Shown one piece after another: positions 2,767 to 29,323 of a stretch of DNA of 64,000 nt (position 1 is the stretch's first letter; the number at the start of each line of letters is the position of its first letter). The position numbers and the translations under genes were made by a program. The notes beneath the pieces were generated by a model. It had not been told where the DNA came from, searched no databases, and saw only the letters and a program-made list of their open reading frames with translations. Source of the stretch: Rhizodiscina lignyota (lineage: Eukaryota). The stretch is from contig ML978123.1 in the NCBI GenBank assembly GCA_010015805.1, positions 248,001 to 312,000 of the forward strand, written 5' to 3'.

Positions 2767-3316
2767 AGGTGTAGGTGACGATTGCGTACTACTGGCAAGC
2801 TGAGTGCCTTGTACAGAAAGAGTGGCAGCTGTCGTGGCGTCATTGTCTGTTTATGCGCTTGTTCGCTCGAGTGGACTTGGGAAATTGACGGTCAAAGAGA
2901 GTTAAGGTCAGGGTCAGATCAGATCAACATAACTGAATAAAGGCGCGGAAACCGCTCCAGCCAATCAATCTTCGGTAGCGTGCAAGGGTTGCTCTTTACG
3001 AGAGACCTTCGGAGTATTCCGCCGCCAGTTTTCTATGAGCGACAGGTCACAGAGGTGCCCAGGGATCAACCAGTCTGGGGGCCTATGCCACCCAGACTTC
3101 GGTACCATGCCAACCAAACTCGTGGTTGAAGGGCAGTAGTTCCTTCCAGGTTTTCGTACCGTCTCGTCCCGGGATTCATCCGAGGTGTATCAGGTCATGG
3201 ACATCCGACGTCCGACTTTCAATATGACTGGAGGCCATTGGGCAATTGTAAGCCAGACAGAAGGTAGTTCCAACGACTCTACGGTTCATGGTCCTCATTA
3301 CTGTCTGTTTCTCATC

Positions 3317-4375
3317 ATGTTACACCTCCGCTTACGGGGCTTTTCACATCATCGGCGTTCTTTGAACGTGCTTCCTCACATACGACGATTCTGCCCTCAA
3401 GAGCAACTATGTGAGCGTCAGAATCCCAAGAGACTTGGCCATTTTTGGAATGCACAATACCGGTTGAATCACTCCCAAGCTTGGAGAGCTCTTTCTGCCG
3501 AGGACATGAAATCGTCCTTTGGCATCTCATCTCCACCCGCCGTCAAGTTTCCTGAAATCACCTTTCCTACTCCTCACATCCTGCTCGTAACCTTGAACAG
3601 GCCACGCTCGCTCAATTGTGTAAATACTGACGGCCATTACGAGCTGGAGGAGCTCTTCAAATGGTTCGACGACGAGCCCCAGCTTCGCTGCGCAGTCCTG
3701 ACGGGAGCAGGACGAGCATTCTGCGCCGGAGCGGACCTTAAGGAATGGGATCAAAGAAATGAGAAAAGAGCGCGCGGAGAGCTTGACGAACGACCTAGGC
3801 TGCCTCCGTCTGGCTTTGGCGGCGTCGGTCGTAGAAGAGGGAAGAAGCCAATCATCGGAGCAGTTAATGGAATGGCTTTGGGCGGAGGATTCGAGATTGC
3901 GTCGGCGATGGATATGGTCATCGCGGCTAGGAGTGCTCAGTTCGCTCTACCAGAGGTCAAGAGGGGGGTGGGAGCTCTTTCGGGTTTGCTACCGAGACTG
4001 CATATGATGTTAGGCAAGCAAAGAGCGCTTGAGATGGCACTCACAGGCCGGAATTTAACTGCGCAGGAGGGAGAGAGGTGGGGATTCGTGAGCGCTATAG
4101 TCGACGATGCGGCTCCAGAAGAGGATGTGATAAAACGACCGGTCGTACAGAAGGCATTGGAATATGCCGAGTGTATTGCGAACAACAGCCCCGACAGTGT
4201 TATTGTTATTCGCGACGCCATTATGTCGGTGTGGTACGAAGGCAATGTAGACACGGCCCACGATGAAGCGCACGACAAATGGGCAAAGAAGCTGGACGAG
4301 GGAGAGAACATCAAGGAGGGTGTTAAGGCGTTTGTGGAAAAGAGAGCACCGCGCTGGGTGAACAGCAAATTCTAG
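3317..4375 (+). CDS. Enoyl-CoA hydratase/isomerase (crotonase family, CaiD-like)
   Basis: LNRPRSLN, AFCAGADLKE, KPIIGAVNGMALGGGFE, FALPEVKRG, EGVKAFVEKRAPRW motifs. Start uncertain (ATG 3317 gives an Arg-rich leader; the downstream MKSSFG start is an alternative). Confidence 0.9.
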   Translation: MLHLRLRGFSHHRRSLNVLPHIRRFCPQEQLCERQNPKRLGHFWNAQYRLNHSQAWRALSAEDMKSSFGISSPPAVKFPEITFPTPHILLVTLNRPRSLNCVNTDGHYELEELFKWFDDEPQLRCAVLTGAGRAFCAGADLKEWDQRNEKRARGELDERPRLPPSGFGGVGRRRGKKPIIGAVNGMALGGGFEIASAMDMVIAARSAQFALPEVKRGVGALSGLLPRLHMMLGKQRALEMALTGRNLTAQEGERWGFVSAIVDDAAPEEDVIKRPVVQKALEYAECIANNSPDSVIVIRDAIMSVWYEGNVDTAHDEAHDKWAKKLDEGENIKEGVKAFVEKRAPRWVNSKF

Positions 4376-5552
4376 AGCTGGGAATTGGCACACCCCCGAA
4401 GCGCGGCCAAAGCCCAAAGCTCAAACGCCAAATCCGGCGCGAGTGCTTCCCCTTGCTATGGAGAGAAGATATGGAGAAAGTTGCAAGGCAGTCGTAGAGT
4501 GCGCCGTCAAAATAAAATGCTATGTCAAGATCAGGGGAAATACGCCGTGCAGGTATTTGCAGTATTGGTGTATGACTATATAATTGAAATAAGTTTTACT
4601 TACTATCGCCTTCGGGCATCGTGGGGTAATCGGTACAGAGATTAAACTGAAAAGAACGGGTACGGTTAACGTGTTGCAGGGCGGTTCGATCCCCGAAGGG
4701 ATCAAAATACTAACATTTAGGTGCCCAGTGACGGACAGCACCTTCTCGTGGTACTGGGTGTGAGTAATCTAAAAGACGAAACTAAGACTGTCCAATATTT
4801 TTTTGGCAATTTTTTTTGGTATAAAAAGTTGCTGGAAAAGATAGCTGTAAGTCTTCTCTCTGGTGTTTCACGCTCGCTCTTTTTGATAGGCGCTCGGACC
4901 AAATAGTGAAGCAGGGTGAGATTTCCAAAGGAGTTATGAATCTGGAACATATATACACGCCTCTCATGTTCCGCACAAAAGTACTGCTCTTCTATGTAGT
5001 CTAAGCTTCGTTTGCTTGCTTCGTTGCAAGGTGCGACCTATCTCGCCGACTGTTGCAAATATCACGGATAATGGCCGCTAAGCGTTTTCGGCGTGGTTGT
5101 CCGAAAGAGGAAATGGTGATGGTCCCGCAGCGTGAAGTAACTTCCTAGCATTGGAGCCGTCATTCAGCAACGACGTTTTAATCGCCGAAAAACAGCTGGA
5201 GGCCTTTCTGCAGAGAATAGTTTTGTTCTCTATGGTGATCGCCTGCATCTACACCAACTTGGGTATACCGAGCCCGCTTCAGCAGACCTTCATTATCGTC
5301 TCAACCCCGCAATTTATTCTCAAGAAGCTTCGCCAAACAGGGCGTATATACATCATTTCCACGCCGTTAAATATCTATCAAGCCGTAGCTCCAAGATGCG
5401 CTCCGGGGCATACTCAAAGATGTCATTCTTTTACCTCGTTACCTTCATTCCAACTACTCAACTCCCATGACGATCCAAGATTCCCGTCATCTAACGTCCT
5501 CCAGCCCCCCATTTTATTTAATTGGAGCGTGGTGGGCATACATTGAAGCACC

Positions 5553-19136: not shown

Positions 19137-20656
19137 ATTTGTTCAAAGTATTAAATACCGGACTACGTCCAACAGTAATGCAGTATCGGACGATGATGGA
19201 TTGAGTTTAAATATTGATGAGCGCTCGGGAACATTGACCGGATGTCAGAAGATTCGCCGTTCATTTATACATTGAGTTTTAGGCGATCGTAAGAGTCTCT
19301 CCAGCACAACATCCTGCTGAGTTTCGAGAAATCTGTATGGCTCGATTTCTAGAGTCCGGCGAGCCGCTCAGGTCGCCTGCACGGCGCCCACCACGCGCAT
19401 GGGTAACGAAAAACATGAGAAGAGCGCAGGCCCATCGTTGATTTGATGAATCAACTCGGAACTGAATCGTGTATAATGTTCGGGCGTGTCAGGCTCGGAA
19501 TCGAGGCAGACGGTAAGGAAAGTCGTCCATTGCCGGAGTGCAAATTAATTTCTTGTGACTTGCCGGACCAGAACCTAACAAGGCAACGGCCTAGGCTGGC
19601 TTCTGGTCTTGGTTAACCGCACTTCTCGCTCCGTGGCCTGATTCGACGAGTCTCCAGCGCCTGAACGGAGCGCGGCCACGTTGAACAAGGATTTCTGGTC
19701 CGGCAACCGATGCCTGCAGGACAGGTGGTCCGGCAATGCAAGGCCACGTTTGAGTACTTACCAGCTCACTTACATACCACTATAAAGAATTATTTTAATA
19801 TCGATCACAATATGCGTTAATTGTCGCAACCCCTTTGCCGTGCGTTCGGTTTTTTCAATTTTGGCGCGTTAGCCTTAGCATACCCTGCCTGACTCATTCT
19901 AGGCCTCGTTGTCGCCGCCCGCCCTGCCATCGAAGCCGGAGACTTCAAGTCGCAGCTTGTGTACTAGTGTACTGAGCAAGCATACTCAACAGCTACATTT
20001 GCAGTCAGTAGGCACTGTGTTGAGACGTATTCTGGCTAGCAGAGCATACACACTTTGCGAGCACATGGAATCCTCTCCGATCCAAACGTTCCCTTTTGTG
20101 CCCTATCGGTAGTTCCGAGCTGAGGGCACAATCTCGTTTGTAGGTGAAACAACCACCATTCGCGTCGATTAAGGGACCCAAAGTCGTTTTATGTTTATAG
20201 CACCATTATCTCCGTGCCGCGTTTCTCTAAACTTCAAACAACAGTCCGGGATTCTTGTCCAGCTAGATGGCCAACTGTTCGATCTACACGACCGTCACTG
20301 AGCGCTAGATCTACCGCTCACGTTTTCCATGTGCCTTGAATTGCGGCTCTTCCACTTCGCCAGAAATTGATCTGCGTGATTGATTTGACTTCGACATGCT
20401 CATTTGACCTTCTGCCTGCCTCATGCTACAGTAGCTTGGCCTTCCGGCGCAATAAATGGAGCTATCGTCGACACTCTCTAAATTCTCATTCTTCCCACTT
20501 TTCACTGCACGCTCTCTTTCTTTTGCCTCCAGTCACTCGTTTATTCTCTTCATATTGTCATCTTCACTGTGTGAAGCTGGGACGCCCTTTGTATAACATT
20601 CATCACTCTCCCTTCTGAACTCGAGGCATCAAAACCTTATTACTTGACTCGAGACA

Positions 20657-21649
20657 ATGTCTGTCACTCTCAAAGCGGCAGCCTTGTTGGGCATCTTTGC
20701 TAGCAGTGCTCTCGCTCACGGCACTGTCAGTGGCATTCGTGCTGATGGCGTCTACAGCGAAGGATGGCAGCTCTCGTACTACTACGACATTCAAAACGGG
20801 GTAGCGTTCCCTCCGACTCCAGGCTGGTACGCAGAGAATCTCGACAACGGCTTCATCTCACCAGACAATTACACCGACCCCAATATAATTTGCCACAAGA
20901 ACGCCCGCAACGCCAACATCACAGCGACGGTCAAGGCCGGCGGGACCATAGACTTCTTGTGGACTCCCTGGCCTGCTAGCCACATCGGGCCTGTATTCAC
21001 ATACGTCGCCAACTGCGACGGCAACTGCTCGGCTGTGGACAAGACAACGCTTGAATGGGTCAAGATTGACGAAGGAGGTATCAACTTTGATACTCAGACA
21101 TGGGCAACTGCCGATCTGATCGCCAACAACAATACCTGGACGACCAAGGTACCCTCGACCCTCGCTGCCGGACAGTACGTGTTCCGACATGAGATCATTG
21201 CAATGCACGGAGCCGAGGCTGAGGACGGTGCGCAAAACTACCCGCAGTGCCTCAACATCGAGATCACAGGCTCAGGGACGGACAAGCCAGAGGGAACACT
21301 TGGAACGAAGCTGTACACCCCCACAGAGCCTGGCATTCTCTTTAACCCATACACGACCCTCACGAACTACACGATTCCAGGTCCTCCTCTGTACAGTGGA
21401 GCGTCGACTGCGGTTGTCTCAGCAGTCGCTTCTTCCGGTGCCGCCACATCTGCTGCTTCTTCCTCTGCTGCTGCTACATCGGCCACTTCTGCGGCCACGG
21501 TTACTCCGCCGTCCAGTGCAGCAGCGCCTGCCAGCACTTCAACCGCCCCTGGTGCCTCCGATGTAGCTCCTTCGAGCTCCAGTTCTGCTTTGACATCTGC
21601 ACCATCCGCGTGTAAGCGCAGGCGTCATGCTCGTGACATTGTTTCCTAG
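20657..21649 (+). CDS. AA9 (GH61) lytic polysaccharide monooxygenase, secreted, with Ser/Ala/Thr-rich tail
   Basis: 20-aa signal peptide then N-terminal His (HGTV), [32 protein letters not shown] motifs. Confidence 0.95.
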
Positions 21650-22272
21650 GTGGGATGGACAATGAGACCGCCTGAGGCTGAATTTGGATTCTTGTATATA
21701 GTTATACTGTTGAAGGACGGCGAGGCGAGGAAAGGATTGAGTTCCATTCAATGTACATATGCTATTTTTAGACACCGTTGTCTCCCATTGGAATAAAGTC
21801 GATGACTTTTGAAAGGGTGATACGTCCTTTTGCGAAAAGTGTCTCATCTGTGCGAACCTCCTGATACAGTAATCAGTTCAAGTGAGACATGTTTTTCCCC
21901 ATGTTCCGCCACGGCGAGTGTCGAGAATGCTGAAGTCAGAGGTAGGACACCACCAGAGCTATTTTGCCATGGTAGGAACTCTTATGCAAACCACATATTC
22001 TCCACTCTCGCGTTTTCCTTAATACCTCTAATTACAAAGCAAAGGCTATGAAATATTAATTCTAAAGTGTATCCCTCGACTTCTTCGCATGTGTATTCTC
22101 TAAGTAAAATCTGTTACGGAGGTATTCCGCAACCTGCTGACCAATAATCCCTTTTCTCCTGTACAACGCTTCATTTACCAAACGATTAGTATTCTTATTA
22201 ATATTTCGTCTGCTCATCTTTCTTTTGCATATTTCATGTGTTGGTTCATCTAAAACCCCGATTTTCTATACA

Positions 22273-23007
22273 ATGTCTTCTACTTTCTCGTCTACATCAT
22301 TTACTTCAAATCCGATCATCTCAAGACCACCGCCCTCTGCGGTTATTTACGATCTTAGCTCTCCCACTCACACAACTATAACGTTACCCGTAGGATCCTT
22401 ATGGTCCAGTGAGTTACATTGGCATGAGCGGCACACAGAGTTTCTGCGCGTGATCAAAGGCTCAGTCCGCGTCCGACTCGACAATCGCAGCTTCGTTGTC
22501 AAAGCCCCAAAGGAGTCAAATGAAGAGGCCATTGTACGCGTTGACATCGGCGTACGACATGAGTGGAAACGGGCAGACGCGGATGAAGCGGCGGGAGAGA
22601 AAGACGAAGAGGAGGTCATTGTGATTGAAAGCACCGAGCCGGCAGACACGGAGAAGAGGCTCTTCTTCTGGAATTTGAACGGTGTCATTCTTGAGGCGCA
22701 GCAAGGTTCGACACGAGAACAGCCGAAGTTTTTGGCTGCTCTGATGATGGAATGGCGGATCATGTTGCATTTATTCGTCATTTTCAAGGGACTGGATAAT
22801 TTTCCTGTGTTTTGGGATCTTAGCACCAAGCTCAGTGGCGTCGGGAGCGGCTTGAGAAGCGCAAAGAGAGCAGAAGGGTTAATCACACATGGCATCTTTT
22901 GGCTCGTGAGAATAGCGGGTGCTGCTCTGGGAATGAGGGCGGTGGAAGAGAGGTTCACTCCTAAAGAACTCTACTTGGAATGGAAATCCTCAAAGAAGGA
23001 TCTGTGA
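22273..23007 (+). CDS. Cupin (RmlC-like) domain protein
   Basis: LHWHERHTEFLRVIKG and GVRHEW cupin motifs, followed by KRLFFWNLN; ATG at 22273. Confidence 0.75.
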   Translation: MSSTFSSTSFTSNPIISRPPPSAVIYDLSSPTHTTITLPVGSLWSSELHWHERHTEFLRVIKGSVRVRLDNRSFVVKAPKESNEEAIVRVDIGVRHEWKRADADEAAGEKDEEEVIVIESTEPADTEKRLFFWNLNGVILEAQQGSTREQPKFLAALMMEWRIMLHLFVIFKGLDNFPVFWDLSTKLSGVGSGLRSAKRAEGLITHGIFWLVRIAGAALGMRAVEERFTPKELYLEWKSSKKDL

Positions 23008-23091: not shown

Positions 23092-26000
23092 TCATTGTGG
23101 CAAGCTGATTTCTGTACAGCCTTTGAGTAATCGCCCCCACACTGCCTTGCTTCGAGAGTCCTCGTTATTGCTCTCGATCCCAATCAGCGTTTGCCTGTCG
23201 CCGATGATTATCACGCCAGCTCTTGCTCGTGTCATGGCAACGTTCAGACGCCGCATATCGTCCAGAAACCCGAGTTTGGAATGAACATTGCACCGCACCG
23301 TAACGAAGATGATAATATCCGCTTCACGGCCCTGATAACCATCAATGCTGGAGACTGTATATTTTGGGAGCGCCGATTGTAGCTTTTCTCTCTGTCTCGC
23401 GTATGGCGTGAGGATCGCAATGTCCGAGTCAAGCGGAGTTGGATTTTCTGCGGGACTCGTTGCCGACTCAGGCGCGGAAGAAAGGAGCTTGCAGGTCTGT
23501 CGACACACATTGATTTGCCCATCATTTGACTTCGACTGACCCCCAAGATCCTCAGCGTCCGAGCACTGTATGAATACCTTGCGGGAGTTGGCTGGCCAAG
23601 GAAATTTCGATGCTGTGAGCGGTATCGTTTCCGCGCTCTTTGCTGTCCCAAGTTTGCTCTCATAGAATTCTGCTGAACTGAAAGCACATATGTCTGGGTG
23701 CATTCTGTATTGAGTATCCAGCATAACCCTGGCAATACCAGGGCGCTCCGGCATGCCGTAGTGTCGTTCAAAGAGGGATATATGGTAGTCGACAACCGCA
23801 GCATGTTTCTGAACTGTGGCTCGGAGCTGAACATGGTCGCCAACTAGAATGGCACGCGAACATCCCTTTGTCAGAGGTATCAAGCTCGCCGGTTCTGTCT
23901 GCTGAGAGGCTTCGTCGATGAGTACAACGTCGAAGAGTTCTTGACGAAGCAGGCCTAGCGCAGCGCCTACGCAGGTAGTAAAGACTAGCCTGCTCTCTTC
24001 AACTCGTTTCTGAGCCAACTTATAACCTGAAAAACTGTTTGAGATCTCTTTGCCCACCATCGCATCACAAGTGAACTCGCGTAAGGTGCTTGAGACTTTG
24101 CTAAGCTACACAGCAGTCAGCCGAATCCAGATTGGATAAGCCACCCCAAGAAAGAGGAGCTGTGAAACTCGATTCTGCTAATGAGTAGGGTAATGCTTAC
24201 CGTTGTTGATACCCTTAGTGGCTTGACACCGGTCAACTCTGGACCTTGCTCCATGATAAATCGTTGCAAGATGTTGTCAACGGCGTTGTGGGTGGGTGCT
24301 GTCACTAAGAACCGTTTATGTGGCAGCTGAATGAGCAACTCCTTCAATATAGCAACAATGGTCTTCGTCTTTCCTGTTCCCGGCGGGCCCCACAAGAATG
24401 ACAGAGGGTTTGTCAATGCAGCCGCAAGAGCTGTGTTCTGACTCTCGTTGAGTGCATCGCTATATTTGATGTCCAGCTTGCCCCCAGTGAATTCGATTTG
24501 GTTCTCTTGAAGGCCGACAAGGCTAGCGTACAGCTTGCAATTCGCTGTTTTTCCGGCGTAGAAGACGGTTACGGCATCGAACATTGCCTTGCTGGTAACG
24601 AAAGATCCGCAATGAGTCGGGATCCAGCTACATTCTTTTGCATACGATGGGATGTTATGCAAGCACCGGAACCTGGCCGATCCCAACTCGGAGTTTATGA
24701 CAATCGCATCCATCGAGTACGGTTTGGATATCGGGGCGTTTTGGGGCGGATCCGATGCTCGTAGCCGGACATGGTCACCGGCTCTTAAGGCGTGGACCGG
24801 AGAATCAATGCGCACCGTGGCTTTTACGACACCAAATCCCTCGTCGAGACCATCTGGTATCAAATCCAAATACACTCTTGAGGTTTTGCTAGCGCTTGTA
24901 GCCTCGTCAATATGATCGATCGCAATCCCGATGATGCTTTTGACGAATTGCTGGATGACTGGCAATCTGCCAATTAGTATTCTGCTCGTTTCAGGCTCGA
25001 TGCACTCTAGAAGAATATCTAAGGCCGTTTCCGGATCCTGAACGGAGAGCGCGACAAGCTGTACAATCCCTGAAAGGTCTTGCATAGACATATGCTTTAA
25101 CTCCCGCAGCAGAATTAGAATCGGATCTCGAATGAACGCTTGATGTGAATTGGCAGCAAGAATCAACTGCCTCAGTAGAAGGGGCGCAGTATGCACCAAG
25201 TCATCCTCCAAAGAATCCTTATGGGCTGCCCAAGTCTGTGACTTGAAGAAGAGTGGTACCAAGTACACTACATTCGGGAGGAAGGTCAGAAGAGAGCTGA
25301 CTACTTTGTTCTGCGGAATTGCGCTATTTGGTCGATTGTCAAGAAGATGGGTGTAAATTTCGCGGAGCCGAGTCTTTTCATCCAGGTCCTTGAGCAAAGT
25401 CAAGATATCGAATATGGTGTTAATCGAGGTCAGATGTTGAAATTTGGAGAGATTGTGATCGCGCATTATTTCCGCTACCGATGGATCAAGCTCAGCCCAG
25501 TCGACGTCCTTGATGCTTGGAATCCGGTACTCCTTCTGTTGCTGCTCGAACAGAGGAAGAACCTCGTCAGTGTCAACATAGTGCAACCATTGATCTAGCA
25601 GTTGCATGGACTTGACATCTCTGTTGCTGATGACGAAGATTTCCTTGACCTTGTCAGTACACGGTGCTGCGCCTCGAAGTATTACATACCGCAGCCAGAA
25701 TACCCGCTCTGTTCATCCTACCAACATGTGTTTGGATATCTTTCCCGATTTTTTGAAGAGCGACGCTCGCTCTGCAATCAAAGTTGACTCCTTCTTCGAC
25801 CGTTTGGTGCCTCTGCCTTCTCCGGTCGCCATTGTTCTTGATGTTGCGATGAGACGATTCATCAGACTGGCTTCGAGTTAAGTACACGAAAGTGTTTCCT
25901 CTTTTCAGCTCATAAAGTTGAAATGTTGACTCGTCGCAATATAATCTGAAGTTAACCTTTGTTGGAGTTGCTCTATAGTGCACCGATTGGGACCCTTGTG

Positions 26001-28476
26001 ACTGAGGAAATGCCAAAACGCGTACGCTGGCATCAACTTGAACTTCACTGGCCTTTGGAATTTTTTGTGGAACGTATATGGCCAGTGTAAGACGCTCGTC
26101 TGGTTGCAGGATTATCAGCTTCTTGTGGAATACCTCTAAAGAGCGACATGCCGAGTGGAGAAATTGGCCCATTCGCTCCGTGGCCGAACTGAAAACTGGC
26201 TTCCAGTGGAGAGCATGATGGTCCAGCTTGAACCGGCTCAACTCTGCCGGCTCGAGCAATGATGACTGCAACAAGCCGTTTCTGACCAGACTTGGGAGCT
26301 GTTTCGACGAAGGAAGTGTGCCGAGCATCCAGATCTGTTGCTCATCACTGAGCTTACTGAAGTCAAAGAACGGCGCAAACTCTGTGATGTCGGCATTGTT
26401 CCGGGTGCACCAACGAAGTGTCATTTGGATAAGTTCGAACTCAGATACAGCAATTCTGTCCCTGCTCAAGAGTAAATCCATAGCATCGACCTCGTAATCC
26501 AAGCAAGACAGGTTGCTTGCAGTCTCAGCTTCAATCTTCTCTTTGGCCGCAGCGTGCAAGACATCTAAAATAAACGGTGGGGATGTCTGGGGAGGTTCCG
26601 GCGGATCTTCGAGATTTACAGGAACTCGGATGCGGTTGCCATCGACGCACTGGGAGAAGAGTCGATTTAGCTGTTGACACTCTGGACTGAGTGGACCTTT
26701 GAGTCTCGCCCACTTCAGATACAAGTTCTTGACCCGACCGAGGGAGGCATTGGTATATCTTGCAAAGAATTCAGCTCTATCATCATCAGTGATCTGATTG
26801 AATGATATTGGTTCCTTCACTCCGGGATAAAGAGCGGGCTGGGAAATTAGGCGTGGAATGATATCTGGATCCCAAGTCACGAAGACTGGTGCATTCTGTC
26901 AGTTATATGTAAACACTGCCGTTATCTGGGAAAACGATGGAAAAGAAAATAGCAAATGTCTTTGTGCACTCACATTTATCGCCATCTAGGTCACCACCGG
27001 ACATTAAGTCGGCACTCGGTCTCTTGCCGCACGTGGGGAATACGATACAGTCGATGAGGTGCGCAAACTCTGGAACATCCACAGCTTTGAACTTTTGCAA
27101 ATCGCCAGGGTGCAGGCAAGGGTTCCTGGTCACCATAACTTCGGTATTCATTATGGTCATTGCCCGACCATCGCCGTCCAGCGTGGTTCTCACGAAGCAG
27201 GTGCCTGGCTTGAGAATTCCGTTCGTACCAGGTTCGCCAGATGGATCACAGATTCCAAAGAGCAGCCGAGACTGCGGAATTAGGATGCGACATCTCTGTT
27301 CATTGTATTTGTTGAGCATTCGAGCATGTTCCTGTTTGATTAGACCCCGCAGGTCTCGGTGAACAGACGGTACGCCATCTATGAGAAGTCTCTCTGCAAG
27401 ATCGAGCCGGTTGAGATACGAGAGAAATTGAAATGCGGCTCTGTTATCCCCTTGGACGGCTTTATGTAAGAACTGGAGATATGTGTCCTGTTTCTGTAGT
27501 ATTGTCTCAACAGCTACTCCGAGAGAGTTCAGCAGTAGAACAACTTCATCGTTAAGGTAGCCGAAAGCATAAGGCTAGAAGCAGATCAGCAATTATTCTC
27601 GTAGAGCACTGCAATACTACTTCTTACCTTGGAATATTCAACTACAGATAAGGAGAGATCCTTTGCATCGCTAAACTTTTTCATGGAAGCTCGAAATTGA
27701 ACCTGCGTCTGCCCTTTTAGTTCTGGACAGAGTGTCAGTACCCCTTTGTAGCCTCGGTATCGAATCTGGAACACCGATGGGAGGTATCTCTTGTTCCTGA
27801 ACGCAATATTTCGTCGCTGAACGAGTTGTCTTGCCAAGGTCGCCGAAATCCGCCCACAGCCGTCAGTGAACATGTAGTCTCCAGAGGTGATATCATCGAT
27901 ATCTTCACAGCGATTGGGTGAAAGTTCTAGGGCCATATCTGCACTCGAAAATAAGAGGCCGATACGTTTCGCTTTCTTGCCGACAGATTTGAGCTTCGAA
28001 AAGTCGCCCATCGCTTCGACTTTGACGGATATTTCCTGCTTGGTAGCCGCAAACATAAAGCAACTTCTTGACTTGAGCTGACTGTTGCTATGGCCGAAGA
28101 AGTGGTATCTCACGCCATTGAGGATGATCCCAGTTTTTAGAAGTCTCGCAATGTAGTCTGCCGAATCTCTTCCCGGAGCTAATCGAAGGGGGTCATTAGG
28201 ATTCAACTTCGGCTCCCGTAGGCGAAAGTCTGCAAAAGAGAGTAACATGAAACGGTGGAGAGGGTCCGAACGAGTGACTCTGGTGGAAGGGGCATTTTCA
28301 AGTCGCAATTGAATGCCCTGCTTTGACAGCGATGACACTAGCTGAATAGACTTGACAAGTCCAGCGTCGTCAAGTTTATCAGCACGAGGGAGATTCGGAA
28401 CGGTAAATTCCCATTTTGTGTCGTTCGCAAGTATTTCTTTCTGTAGTGTGCTCACAGGAAACCGAAGTTTGCTCAT
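23092..28476 (-). CDS. RNA-dependent RNA polymerase fused to C-terminal Upf1/DNA2/NAM7-like SF1 helicase (~1700 aa)
   Basis: Exons 28476-27628, 27574-26974, 26885-25690, 25643-24201, 24105-23092 (5103 nt, in frame across canonical GT-AG introns). RdRP motifs FFGHSNSQLK, FTDGCGRIS, PSVFQIRYRGYKG, VTRNPCLHPGD, SGGDLDGDKFFVTWD; helicase motifs GPPGTGKT, APTHNAVDN, DEASQ, GDHVQL, QYRMHP, IDGYQGRE, RRLNVAMTRA. Confidence 0.93.
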
Positions 28477-28699
28477 GGCGAGTTGGACCGAGTTGGTTTG
28501 TGGCGCTTTCGCAGCAGCATGAGAGAGTCGAAGGAAGAGTACGAAGAGCCTAGAGGATCGAATGGCTTGTTCGATTGCTTGTCCTATTTAGGTGGATGTT
28601 GCATATGCTGTGTAACCACGTGAGATTCGCACATCAAACGGTCTGACACTCTAAATATTGGCTGTTCGCGAGGCTCAAAGTAAACCCCACAAGTTCAAA
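28477..28699. promoter_or_regulatory. Short divergent (bidirectional) promoter between RdRP-helicase and AAA_28 genes
   Basis: 223 bp between two divergent ATGs; palindromic CACGTG at 28617-28622. Confidence 0.5.
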
Positions 28700-29323
28700 A
28701 TGGGGGATCCTAAGAATATCTTTGTTATTGGTGCTCAGTGCACAGGCAAATCAACCCTAGTCAATGGTCTAGAAGGGCATTTCTCACAGAGTCTCAGCCT
28801 TGCTCCAAGTCCCAGCATCATTCGGGAGGTTGCACGTTCTGTGCTCCATAAATACGGCTTCACTCGAGATGACATCTTGAACTCTCCTGAGCGCGCCCTA
28901 CAACTGCAAGAAAAAATCCTGGAAGCTCAATTTGAAGCTGAGGGCGCTATCTTAGACGACCTAACAACAAAATGGTACATTTCCGACCGGTCTGGCCTGG
29001 ATCCAATCGTCTACGCCTACCTGTATGTCAGTGAAGAGTCTGCTCAGAGACTGCTTGCGTCTCCGATATGGACAGCATTAGAAAGCAATATGAAAGGAGG
29101 ACTCGTGATCCTTTGCGAGGCTGGATGCAGCTGGCTTGTTGATGATGGGACGAGGCTGATGCCAAAAGACGATAAAGACTGGGAGAGAGTGGACTTGGCT
29201 TTCAGGATGCTACTCGATATGCGAGACATTGAGTATATCTTGCTACCTCGCGATATGAAGGACCTTGAGCGGCGGATTGAGATTGTTGTAGAAGCCCATG
29301 GATCGCAAGTGCATGGCATGTGA
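28700..29323 (+). CDS. AAA_28 (NadR/Ttd14-like) P-loop nucleotide-kinase-fold protein
   Basis: N-terminal Walker A IFVIGAQCTGKST, IIREVARSVL, LQEKILEAQ, YISDRSGLDPIVYA, LVDDGTR and LERRI motifs; ATG 28700 is in frame with the 28658 ORF. Confidence 0.85.
   Translation: MGDPKNIFVIGAQCTGKSTLVNGLEGHFSQSLSLAPSPSIIREVARSVLHKYGFTRDDILNSPERALQLQEKILEAQFEAEGAILDDLTTKWYISDRSGLDPIVYAYLYVSEESAQRLLASPIWTALESNMKGGLVILCEAGCSWLVDDGTRLMPKDDKDWERVDLAFRMLLDMRDIEYILLPRDMKDLERRIEIVVEAHGSQVHGM

Follow-up and report, generated by a model that had tools for sequence, protein, structure and literature searches.

A Rhizodiscina lignyota gene of the FgRdRp5 family is predicted to join an RNA-dependent RNA polymerase and a Upf1-like helicase in one chain

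[quoted passage not shown] These questions are raised by a minus-strand gene of Rhizodiscina lignyota that lies in a stretch of 64,000 nucleotides (nt) of contig ML978123.1 (GenBank assembly GCA_010015805.1, positions 248,001 to 312,000), referred to here as the window. An earlier note, made from the bare letters, had placed at 23092..28476 a gene of five exons with canonical splice sites and ~1700 residues (aa), and had suggested that it could be a separate, uncharacterised silencing or antiviral branch, on the premise that characterised fungal RdRPs all stand alone. We find that the limits of the gene are exact and that both enzymes are predicted to lie in one 1700-aa chain. The premise was wrong because FgRdRp5, an RdRP of Fusarium graminearum fused to a helicase, had already been described and knocked out (PMC4515635, PMC11237814). 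Judged by its sequence, the window gene is the R. lignyota member of the FgRdRp5 family, not a new branch. Papers are cited here by PMC number; they were available in part, and what is said of their content holds for those parts.

Between 28587 and 23092 the minus strand contains five long stop-free blocks. Linked through four GT..AG introns, every one of them with a CTGAC or CTGAT branch motif, they make up a coding sequence that opens with the ATG at 28476 and closes with the stop codon at 23094-23092 (Table 1). The Pfam RdRP profile PF05183 (gathering cut-off 23.8 bits) matched exon 1 (profile 13-238, E 5.7e-46, 157.8 bits), exon 2 (profile 244-440, E 2.6e-45, 155.7 bits) and the first 112 aa of exon 3 (profile 442-556, E 4.8e-12, 45.8 bits), and these matches are contiguous over profile positions 13-556 of 582. 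The helicase profile AAA_11 was divided between the end of exon 4 (E 3.3e-17) and the start of exon 5 (profile 185-255, E 5.3e-23), whereas AAA_12 was matched within exon 5 nearly end to end (E 1.7e-48, profile 1-194 of 195). All of these matches were far over the curated Pfam cut-offs, and the three domains stand in the order RdRP, AAA_11, AAA_12 in one chain of ~1700 aa. The catalytic motifs, helicase motifs I, II and VI among them, are intact. In an alignment of 62 rows DLDGD (aa 478), GPPGTGKT, DEASQ, QGxEAD and RRxNVxxTRA were each at least 90% conserved, the G, P, P, G, T, G and T residues of Walker A being invariant, and the DEA box (VLIDEA) is at aa 1426 in the numbering of a 1702-aa model discussed below. 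Our conclusion is that the gene is predicted to encode a single chain in which the RdRP is catalytically intact and the SF1 helicase is intact as well, as the earlier note had read it. The ~110 aa which that note placed ahead of the RdRP shrink to ~60, since the Pfam match starts at aa 61; a short N-terminus had been correctly seen and is common to the whole family. A pseudogene was rejected as all motifs are intact and conserved. A viral or transposon origin was also rejected, given the cellular-type PF05183, the introns and a tree that follows the fungal classes.

Intron 3, at which the RdRP half meets the helicase half, offers two in-frame acceptors 6 nt apart, giving an intron of 40 nt (1702 aa) or of 46 nt (1700 aa). 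The 46-nt intron was adopted because the consensus of 61 homologues, '..AA|EIYVISNRD', is without the two extra residues of the 40-nt reading, because the deposited R. lignyota protein agrees with it and because the first AG comes only 4 nt past the branch A. Over aa 1-1485, exon 4 included, our model shows 100% identity to that deposited protein (P0001, 1638 aa, named 'RdRP-domain-containing protein'); the sole difference from the 1702-aa model over this span is a two-residue gap at the intron 3 acceptor. The P0001 tail corresponds to 23874-23740 and, after a change of frame, to 23705-23247, where it ends with AAA_12 lost. As both the AAA_12 match and the full-length homologues continue uninterrupted through the skipped 34 nt (23706-23739), we take the unspliced exon 5 to be right and the deposited 3' end to be wrong. 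A new result of this analysis is that the deposited gene model, on the evidence of these matches, loses AAA_12 through a spurious intron.

The explanation to be weighed at intron 3 is that two adjacent genes were wrongly merged, an RdRP gene that ends within 'intron 3' and a helicase gene that begins at a Met in exon 4. The intron is indeed very short, and if unspliced it ends the RdRP frame at a stop. The Met follows soon after (~25602-25604 on the minus strand, 14 codons into exon 4), reads 'SMQ' here and 'SMR' in the consensus, and occurs commonly among family members; translation of a helicase-only product could begin at this codon. Several further observations weigh against a single chain. 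Six of the 120 homologues listed from a first protein search (P0012, P0059, P0099, P0102, P0104 and P0107; 879-934 aa) start at the exon-4 boundary and contain the helicase half only; these may be open reading frame (ORF) fragments, and helicase-only products are compatible with them as well. Orthologous loci have been annotated as split in Aspergillus fumigatus A1163 (a 648-aa 'RNA/DNA helicase, putative') and in Fusarium culmorum (a 623-aa RdRP and a 683-aa piece). When RNA sequencing runs were sought for the stretch none was listed, and the single run covering the stretch was one 17.9-kb DNA contig with no joints, probably the source assembly.

The comparative evidence that the fusion is genuine is nevertheless strong. 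The other 114 of the 120 listed homologues span junction 3 in a single BLASTP high-scoring segment pair (HSP). Nine metagenome loci (L001-L009, ~five distinct genes) carry the whole gene in colinear form. An uninterrupted ORF over junction 3 had been expected in these loci and was not found; the intron sits at the identical codon. It measures 46 nt in the window, 48 nt in L002, 51 nt in L001, 60 nt in L008 and 61 nt in L006, and in all five genomes it is GT..AG, of phase 0 and provided with a CTRAY-like branch motif. The five introns are unrelated in sequence and have stops in their frames, whereas the exon on either side is conserved. Such a gap of ~46-61 nt is too small for a terminator and a promoter. 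A raw-ORF comparison used 32 of 36 short ena/lgn/jgi records spanning model aa ~485-1367 (P0097, P0103, P0113 and P0119, in which the match is split near aa 950-960, were left out). In 24 of these 32 the ORF crosses junction 3 seamlessly, so that in those genomes a single physical ORF takes in the end of the RdRP and the beginning of the helicase. Six others carry an unconserved in-frame insert of 16-21 residues that starts with V (GTN) and ends with Q or K (CAG or AAG) at the junction, which marks them as intron-naive ORF calls; the last two gave no match to the junction motif. In each of the 12 fragments scanned, the end of PF05183 and the beginning of PF13086 fell within a single record. 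Finally, the sequence EIxVISNRD, in which N9 and D11 are invariant in the 62 rows, directly follows the acceptor. Because it is upstream of the first Met of that frame, it is translatable only when joined to exon 3, and the conserved residues between the acceptor and the Met count against two separate genes. We therefore regard the merging of two genes as very improbable and the RdRP and helicase halves as parts of one predicted protein. In the metagenome loci the positions of the family's introns are conserved and their presence varies: L002-L004 are without intron 2, exons 2 and 3 forming one ORF (locus nt 3311-5257), and introns 3 and 4 of L001 are each in frame.

How far does this architecture extend? 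The first protein search returned ~1700-aa proteins with PF05183, PF13086 and PF13087 from Dothideomycetes, Leotiomycetes, Sordariomycetes and Lecanoromycetes. A second search, with the Zalerion member as query, gave 620 proteins at E <=0.001 and added Trichoderma, Fusarium, Colletotrichum, Epichloe, Chaetothyriales and Aspergillus (A. fumigatus included) as well as the Pezizomycetes Ascobolus and Kalaharituber. Members from these genera include P0130 of Trichoderma reesei (TRIREDRAFT_55637) and P0168 of Ascobolus immersus. Among the best 120 of these 620, 109 have all three domains, 10 shorter ones are without AAA_12 and one has the RdRP only. The family is present in six classes of Pezizomycotina, with fused gene models in well over a hundred species, and its members are often labelled 'related to NAM7' in databases. 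One of the matches, P0153, is FGSG_09076 of F. graminearum PH-1, which is FgRdRp5. Residues 18-1700 of the window model align with 21-1705 of FGSG_09076 in one HSP with 44.7% identity, the family-specific linker included, and the motifs fall at nearly the same positions in the window model and in FGSG_09076 (DLDGD 478 and 476, Walker A 1303 and 1302, DEA 1426 and 1429). This end-to-end colinearity with a characterised protein largely disposes of the separate branch envisaged in the earlier note.

In a FastTree tree with 50 rows, made from the window model and 49 full-length named members chosen from 181 proteins, the branching follows the fungal classes. The window protein falls in a Dothideomycete clade with support of 100 and FgRdRp5 in a Sordariomycete clade. 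As a qualification of the orthology, the tree consists of family members only, the outgroup RdRPs QDE-1, SAD-1 and RRP-3 having been left out; the orthology thus rests on the colinearity that includes the linker. From its span of Pezizomycetes to Sordariomycetes the family is evidently old. Two placements in the tree depart from the classes. Monosporascus sp. P0005, a Sordariomycete, nests within Pleosporales (support 100) and shares 59% identity with the window protein as against only 45% with Zalerion, and the Leotiomycete Coleophoma spp. P0023 and P0026 nest within Dothideomycetes (support 98). Horizontal transfer, old paralogy or contamination could account for these placements. Many A. 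fumigatus strains have a fused model of 1655-1687 aa (the P0181 cluster), and the 648-aa record of A1163 falls in the same 90%-identity cluster. The available parts of A. fumigatus RNA interference (RNAi) papers count only two RdRPs, RrpA and RrpB, of which P0181 might be one.

Which known enzymes do the two halves resemble? Among solved structures, the C-terminal helicase half is closest to UPF1/NAM7 (E 6.6e-42 to 2.6e-38), followed by Chaetomium SETX, Sen1, IGHMBP2 and DNA2, with ZNFX1 as the weakest SF1B match (1.6e-19). In the fold model of exon 4 a 1B-like beta-barrel with a stalk helix superposes on Upf1-like helicases; barrel, stalk and RecA1 together (model aa ~190-483) gave Z scores of 9.9 with Sen1, 9.4 with SETX, 9.1 with Upf1 and 8.0 with ZNFX1, and Foldseek matched the model to Upf1 with E 3.4e-7. 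Positions 90-184 in the middle of the AAA_11 profile are unmatched, which suggests a missing or short insertion. The N-terminal CH zinc-knuckle domain of Upf1 binds Upf2. In the window protein the region ahead of the barrel is all-helical in the fold model, and no exon gave a zinc-binding Pfam match, of the CH or the NFX1 type, at E up to 0.01. The Hrr1 and SAD-3 helicases we take to belong to the ZNFX1 group, with ZNFX1 as their solved relative, and they were compared only through it. Within those terms the helicase is Upf1/NAM7-like by sequence and fold comparison and not ZNFX1-like, so of the 'Upf1/ZNFX1-like' label first given to it only the former part stands. The catalytic exon 2 is closest to Arabidopsis RDR2 (1.8e-22), QDE-1 being far weaker (2.5e-10 to 3.4e-8), and the RdRP tail in exon 3 superposes on residues 852-970 of maize RDR2 (ZmRDR2; Z 6.7). 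These matches place the polymerase with the plant-RDR/SAD-1-like enzymes, in agreement with the trees in the accessible parts of PMC4515635 and PMC4870495.

The 640-aa linker between the two enzymes gave no sequence match in Pfam or in the PDB. Exons 3 and 4 were each folded with 61 homologues. The exon 4 model had a predicted local distance difference test score (pLDDT) of 89.3 and a predicted template modelling score (pTM) of 0.83, with a low-confidence hinge at its start; the exon 3 model had a pLDDT of 80.7, with values mostly of 84-96 over a beta-rich domain at exon-3 aa ~239-398. The six top VIA matches of that domain are all TLDc domains (NCOA7B Z 10.8, OXR2 10.7, mEAK7 10.1, Skywalker 9.5, Rtc5p 9.2 and Oxr1 8.6; Z 8.6-10.8, root-mean-square deviation 2.8-3.3, 142-157 residues), and the next match had a Z of 6.7. 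Foldseek agreed in rank (prob 0.99) with an E of only 0.016. In the ESM atlas the nearest named families were BACK+TLDc clusters (score 0.90), in the top one of which 93% of members have BACK; the 163 of 256 features shared are slightly below the 170 typical of true family members. Pfam TLD (PF07534) did not match exon 3 of the window gene at E up to 1, and was found in one of 13 scanned proteins at the predicted position (E 0.013, with 15.8 bits where the cut-off is 24.5). A TLDc-like fold in the linker is therefore likely on the strength of the models. Assignment of the helices that precede it (exon-3 aa ~126-230) to BACK is tentative; the VIA match to the BACK domain of KLHL11 was weak (Z 5.7, 83 residues, 19% identity) and Pfam BACK (PF07707) appeared in one of 13 scanned relatives, sub-threshold (E 0.14) and at the predicted position. 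The all-helical domain of exon 4, examined as part of the exon 4 model, gave only generic helical-repeat matches (Z <=7.7). A limited full-text search for TLDc together with cellular RdRP gave only two unrelated co-occurrences, and the available parts of the Fusarium papers name RdRP, DEXDc and AAA domains only, with the BACK/TLDc-like linker unmentioned.

What would such a chain do? We think it probable that the window protein is a one-chain polymerase-helicase of the FgRdRp5 family, with the order N-terminus, RdRP, BACK-TLDc, helical domain and SF1B helicase, and that it produces small interfering RNAs (siRNAs) in the proposed manner. Throughout the six classes the two catalytic centres are conserved, and so is the linker. 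The helicase would load onto a single-stranded target RNA and, using ATP, would rid it of bound proteins and of secondary structure or set product free. The polymerase tethered to it would copy the target into double-stranded RNA (dsRNA), which Dicer would cut into siRNAs, while the BACK/TLDc module and helical domain would probably act as a rigid spacer or a partner-docking surface. The whole would be a one-chain functional analogue of polymerase-plus-helicase complexes.

Work on F. graminearum bears directly on this proposal. As excerpted, PMC4515635 (2015) describes FgRdRp5 with C-terminal helicase and AAA domains and places it nearer to plant RDRs than to QDE-1; PMC11237814 (mBio 2024) gives Fgrdrp5 as RdRP, DEXDc (1277-1478) and AAA PF13087 (1475-1677) and puts it on 'a separate branch'. 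The latter paper reports expression that rises in sporulation and sexual stages and, from small-RNA sequencing, fewer exonic siRNAs (ex-siRNAs) in the knockout, and it also states that Hrr1 and SAD-3 have helicase roles in silencing. Other points from these papers count against the siRNA-producing chain as we propose it. The knockout phenotype is partial, with immature ascospores and a discharge of 47.6% of wild type, and in the portion of PMC11237814 available the authors leave the role of the helicase domain for future exploration. FgRdRp5 is also reportedly not critical for hairpin-RNA silencing (PMC4870495).

To these must be added a mechanical difficulty, for cooperation between polymerase and helicase is something that we infer. 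Upf1-like helicases move 5' to 3', whereas the polymerase reads its template 3' to 5'. Their opposite polarities keep the two motors from simply moving side by side along the same strand. The helicase would thus have to work ahead of the polymerase on a strand that is duplexed or bound, to work on the strand being made, or to finish before hand-over. A functional analogy is given by coronavirus nsp12 and nsp13, where a 5'-3' SF1B helicase of opposite polarity speeds synthesis through duplex RNA (available text of PMC13190607); these are separate proteins, and nsp12 has the unrelated viral palm RdRp fold.

Another reading has the Upf1-like helicase as the main activity in RNA surveillance (remodelling or decay of messenger ribonucleoproteins, perhaps linked to ribosome biogenesis) and the polymerase marking or tailing targets. 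The closeness of the helicase to Upf1/NAM7 and the 'related to NAM7' names fit this idea, as do the ribosome-biogenesis enrichment of the genes down only in the Fgrdrp5 knockout and a network that ties the Fgrdrp5 protein to NAM7 and nonsense-mediated decay (NMD) factors, both found in the accessible portion of PMC11237814. Ribosome-biogenesis genes are also down in an A. fumigatus rrpA/B double knockout according to excerpted work, and the parallel may be a coincidence. We judge a pure surveillance enzyme unlikely: no Pfam match to the CH zinc domain was found, conservation over six classes takes in DLDGD and the entire RdRP, and the knockout lowers ex-siRNAs. A dedicated antiviral module, raised as a possibility in the earlier note, would have the helicase sense or unwind mycovirus RNA and the polymerase make dsRNA for antiviral siRNAs. 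In PMC4870495 hypovirus-derived siRNAs are predicted to target FgRdRp5 and an antiviral role is speculated, and the role is repeated in a table of PMC6764512, which also gives FgRdRp5 29% identity to SAD-1 (both as far as the excerpts go). Its support is target prediction only, the phenotype published in PMC11237814 is developmental (sexual stage) and was seen in virus-free strains, and the sequence is without anything virus-specific, so that this module seems to us somewhat less plausible even than the surveillance enzyme. The siRNA-producing polymerase-helicase chain is the reading that we retain.

Comparison with other systems sets this chain apart in several respects. FgRdRp5 itself has the same domain order and is 1721 aa long as against 1700 here, and both proteins are nearer to plant RDRs than to QDE-1; FgRdRp5 comes from Sordariomycetes and the window protein from Dothideomycetes. 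A cellular RdRP likewise works with an SF1 helicase in silencing in the RNA-directed RNA polymerase complex (RDRC) of Schizosaccharomyces pombe, which consists of Rdp1, Hrr1 and Cid12, and in Neurospora SAD-1/SAD-3. In those systems the polypeptides are separate, whereas the window protein is one chain and has no poly(A)-polymerase-like part. The earlier view of a hard-wired RDRC-like pair is reasonable as regards a polymerase and a helicase in one chain. It fails as a simple fusion of the RDRC partners because the helicase is Upf1/NAM7-like, with ZNFX1 as its weakest match, and lacks NFX1 fingers. For the helicase core, 1B barrel and stalk the best match in both sequence and fold is Upf1/NAM7, but it has the CH zinc-knuckle domain that the window protein is without and works in an entirely different context. 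Of solved relatives, RDR2 of Arabidopsis matches the catalytic exon best, and that of maize fits the RdRP tail; the window protein is without the N-terminal RRM and long N-terminal region of RDR2 and has a C-terminal extension of ~1100 aa. The BTB-BACK-TLDc and other TLDc proteins (NCOA7, OXR1/2, mEAK7, TBC1D24 and Rtc5p) match aa ~720-882 in fold. They differ in that the window protein is without a BTB domain, the likeness in sequence is below the Pfam threshold and V-ATPase, bound in four of the six matching structures, is not known to be bound by the window protein. Helicase-RdRP fusions are described in the available parts of PMC3661229 and PMC4791657 for Dictyostelium (RrpA-C), peronosporomycete oomycetes, Hydra and Nematostella. 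Those have an N-terminal SF2 DEAD-box and helicase-C on RDR-gamma, whereas here a C-terminal Upf1-like SF1B helicase is present, and the two kinds of fusion are independent. An amphioxus RdRP candidate, BL02069, has an added AAA_12 domain (PMC6396948, in part). By its sequence a fusion of RdRP with an SF1 helicase may thus also exist in an animal, through independent or shared descent.

Table 1 Features of the window (positions in nt of the 64,000-nt stretch; aa numbers refer to the 1700-aa protein unless stated).
Feature	Position	Strand	Remarks
AA9 lytic polysaccharide monooxygenase	20648-21646	(+)	E 7.8e-68
Weak cupin ORF	22141-23004	(+)	convergent; stop 84 nt from the stop of the RdRP gene
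Whole coding region	23092..28476	(-)	5 exons, 1700 aa, stop codon included
Exon 1	27628..28476	(-)	aa 1-283, N-terminal part of RdRP
Intron 1	27627-27575	(-)	53 nt
Exon 2	26974..27574	(-)	aa 284-483 plus 1 nt, RdRP catalytic part
Intron 2	26973-26886	(-)	88 nt, phase 1
Exon 3	25690..26885	(-)	aa 484-882, RdRP tail, BACK-like helices, TLDc-like domain
Intron 3	25644..25689	(-)	46 nt, phase 0, GTATGT..CTGAC..AG; junction of RdRP half and helicase half
Exon 4	24201..25643	(-)	aa 883-1363, hinge, helical domain, 1B barrel, stalk, RecA1 start
Intron 4	24200-24106	(-)	95 nt
Exon 5	23092..24105	(-)	aa 1364-1700 plus stop, remainder of RecA1, RecA2
Catalytic DLDGD motif	26978..26992	(-)	aa 478-482; at least 90% conserved in the 62-row alignment
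BACK-like helical module	26194..26508	(-)	exon-3 aa ~126-230; weak assignment
TLDc-like beta-rich domain	25690..26169	(-)	exon-3 aa ~239-398 (protein aa ~720-882)
All-helical domain	24894..25517	(-)	~13 helices; secondary structure of the exon 4 fold model
Beta-barrel (1B-like) and stalk helix	24540..24863	(-)	fold superposition on Upf1-like helicases
Walker A GPPGTGKT	24366..24389	(-)	aa 1303 in 1702-aa numbering; G,P,P,G,T,G,T invariant in 62 rows
34-nt stretch cut as 'intron' in the deposited model	23706..23739	(-)	coding; AAA_12 match and homologues continuous
AAA_28 P-loop protein	28655-29320	(+)	divergent; likely ATG 28700, 223 nt from the RdRP ATG

The genes on either side (Table 1) look unrelated to RNA silencing. 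As a discovery the architecture adds little, since a chain of RdRP and SF1 helicase is already in print for F. graminearum (PMC4515635 and PMC11237814, in the parts available). The gene is split or truncated in some reference annotations, the deposited model of this locus among them, which lends weight to evidence that both halves share a reading frame. Although the family is old, RNAi inventories may overlook it; an example is given by the A. fumigatus papers, which in their available parts list RrpA and RrpB only. The TLDc-like domain in the linker is a concrete handle for finding partners, and how a 5'-3' helicase aids a polymerase that reads 3'-5' is a testable question. V-ATPase complexes make up four of the six matching TLDc structures. 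The endomembranes that bear V-ATPase are therefore a candidate site to which the BACK/TLDc module, instead of being a passive spacer, might dock and so place dsRNA synthesis, an analogy that we offer as a long shot. If it were true, the family would carry out spatially targeted RNA surveillance, in which Upf1-style recognition of aberrant or foreign RNA would be coupled to local production of siRNAs.

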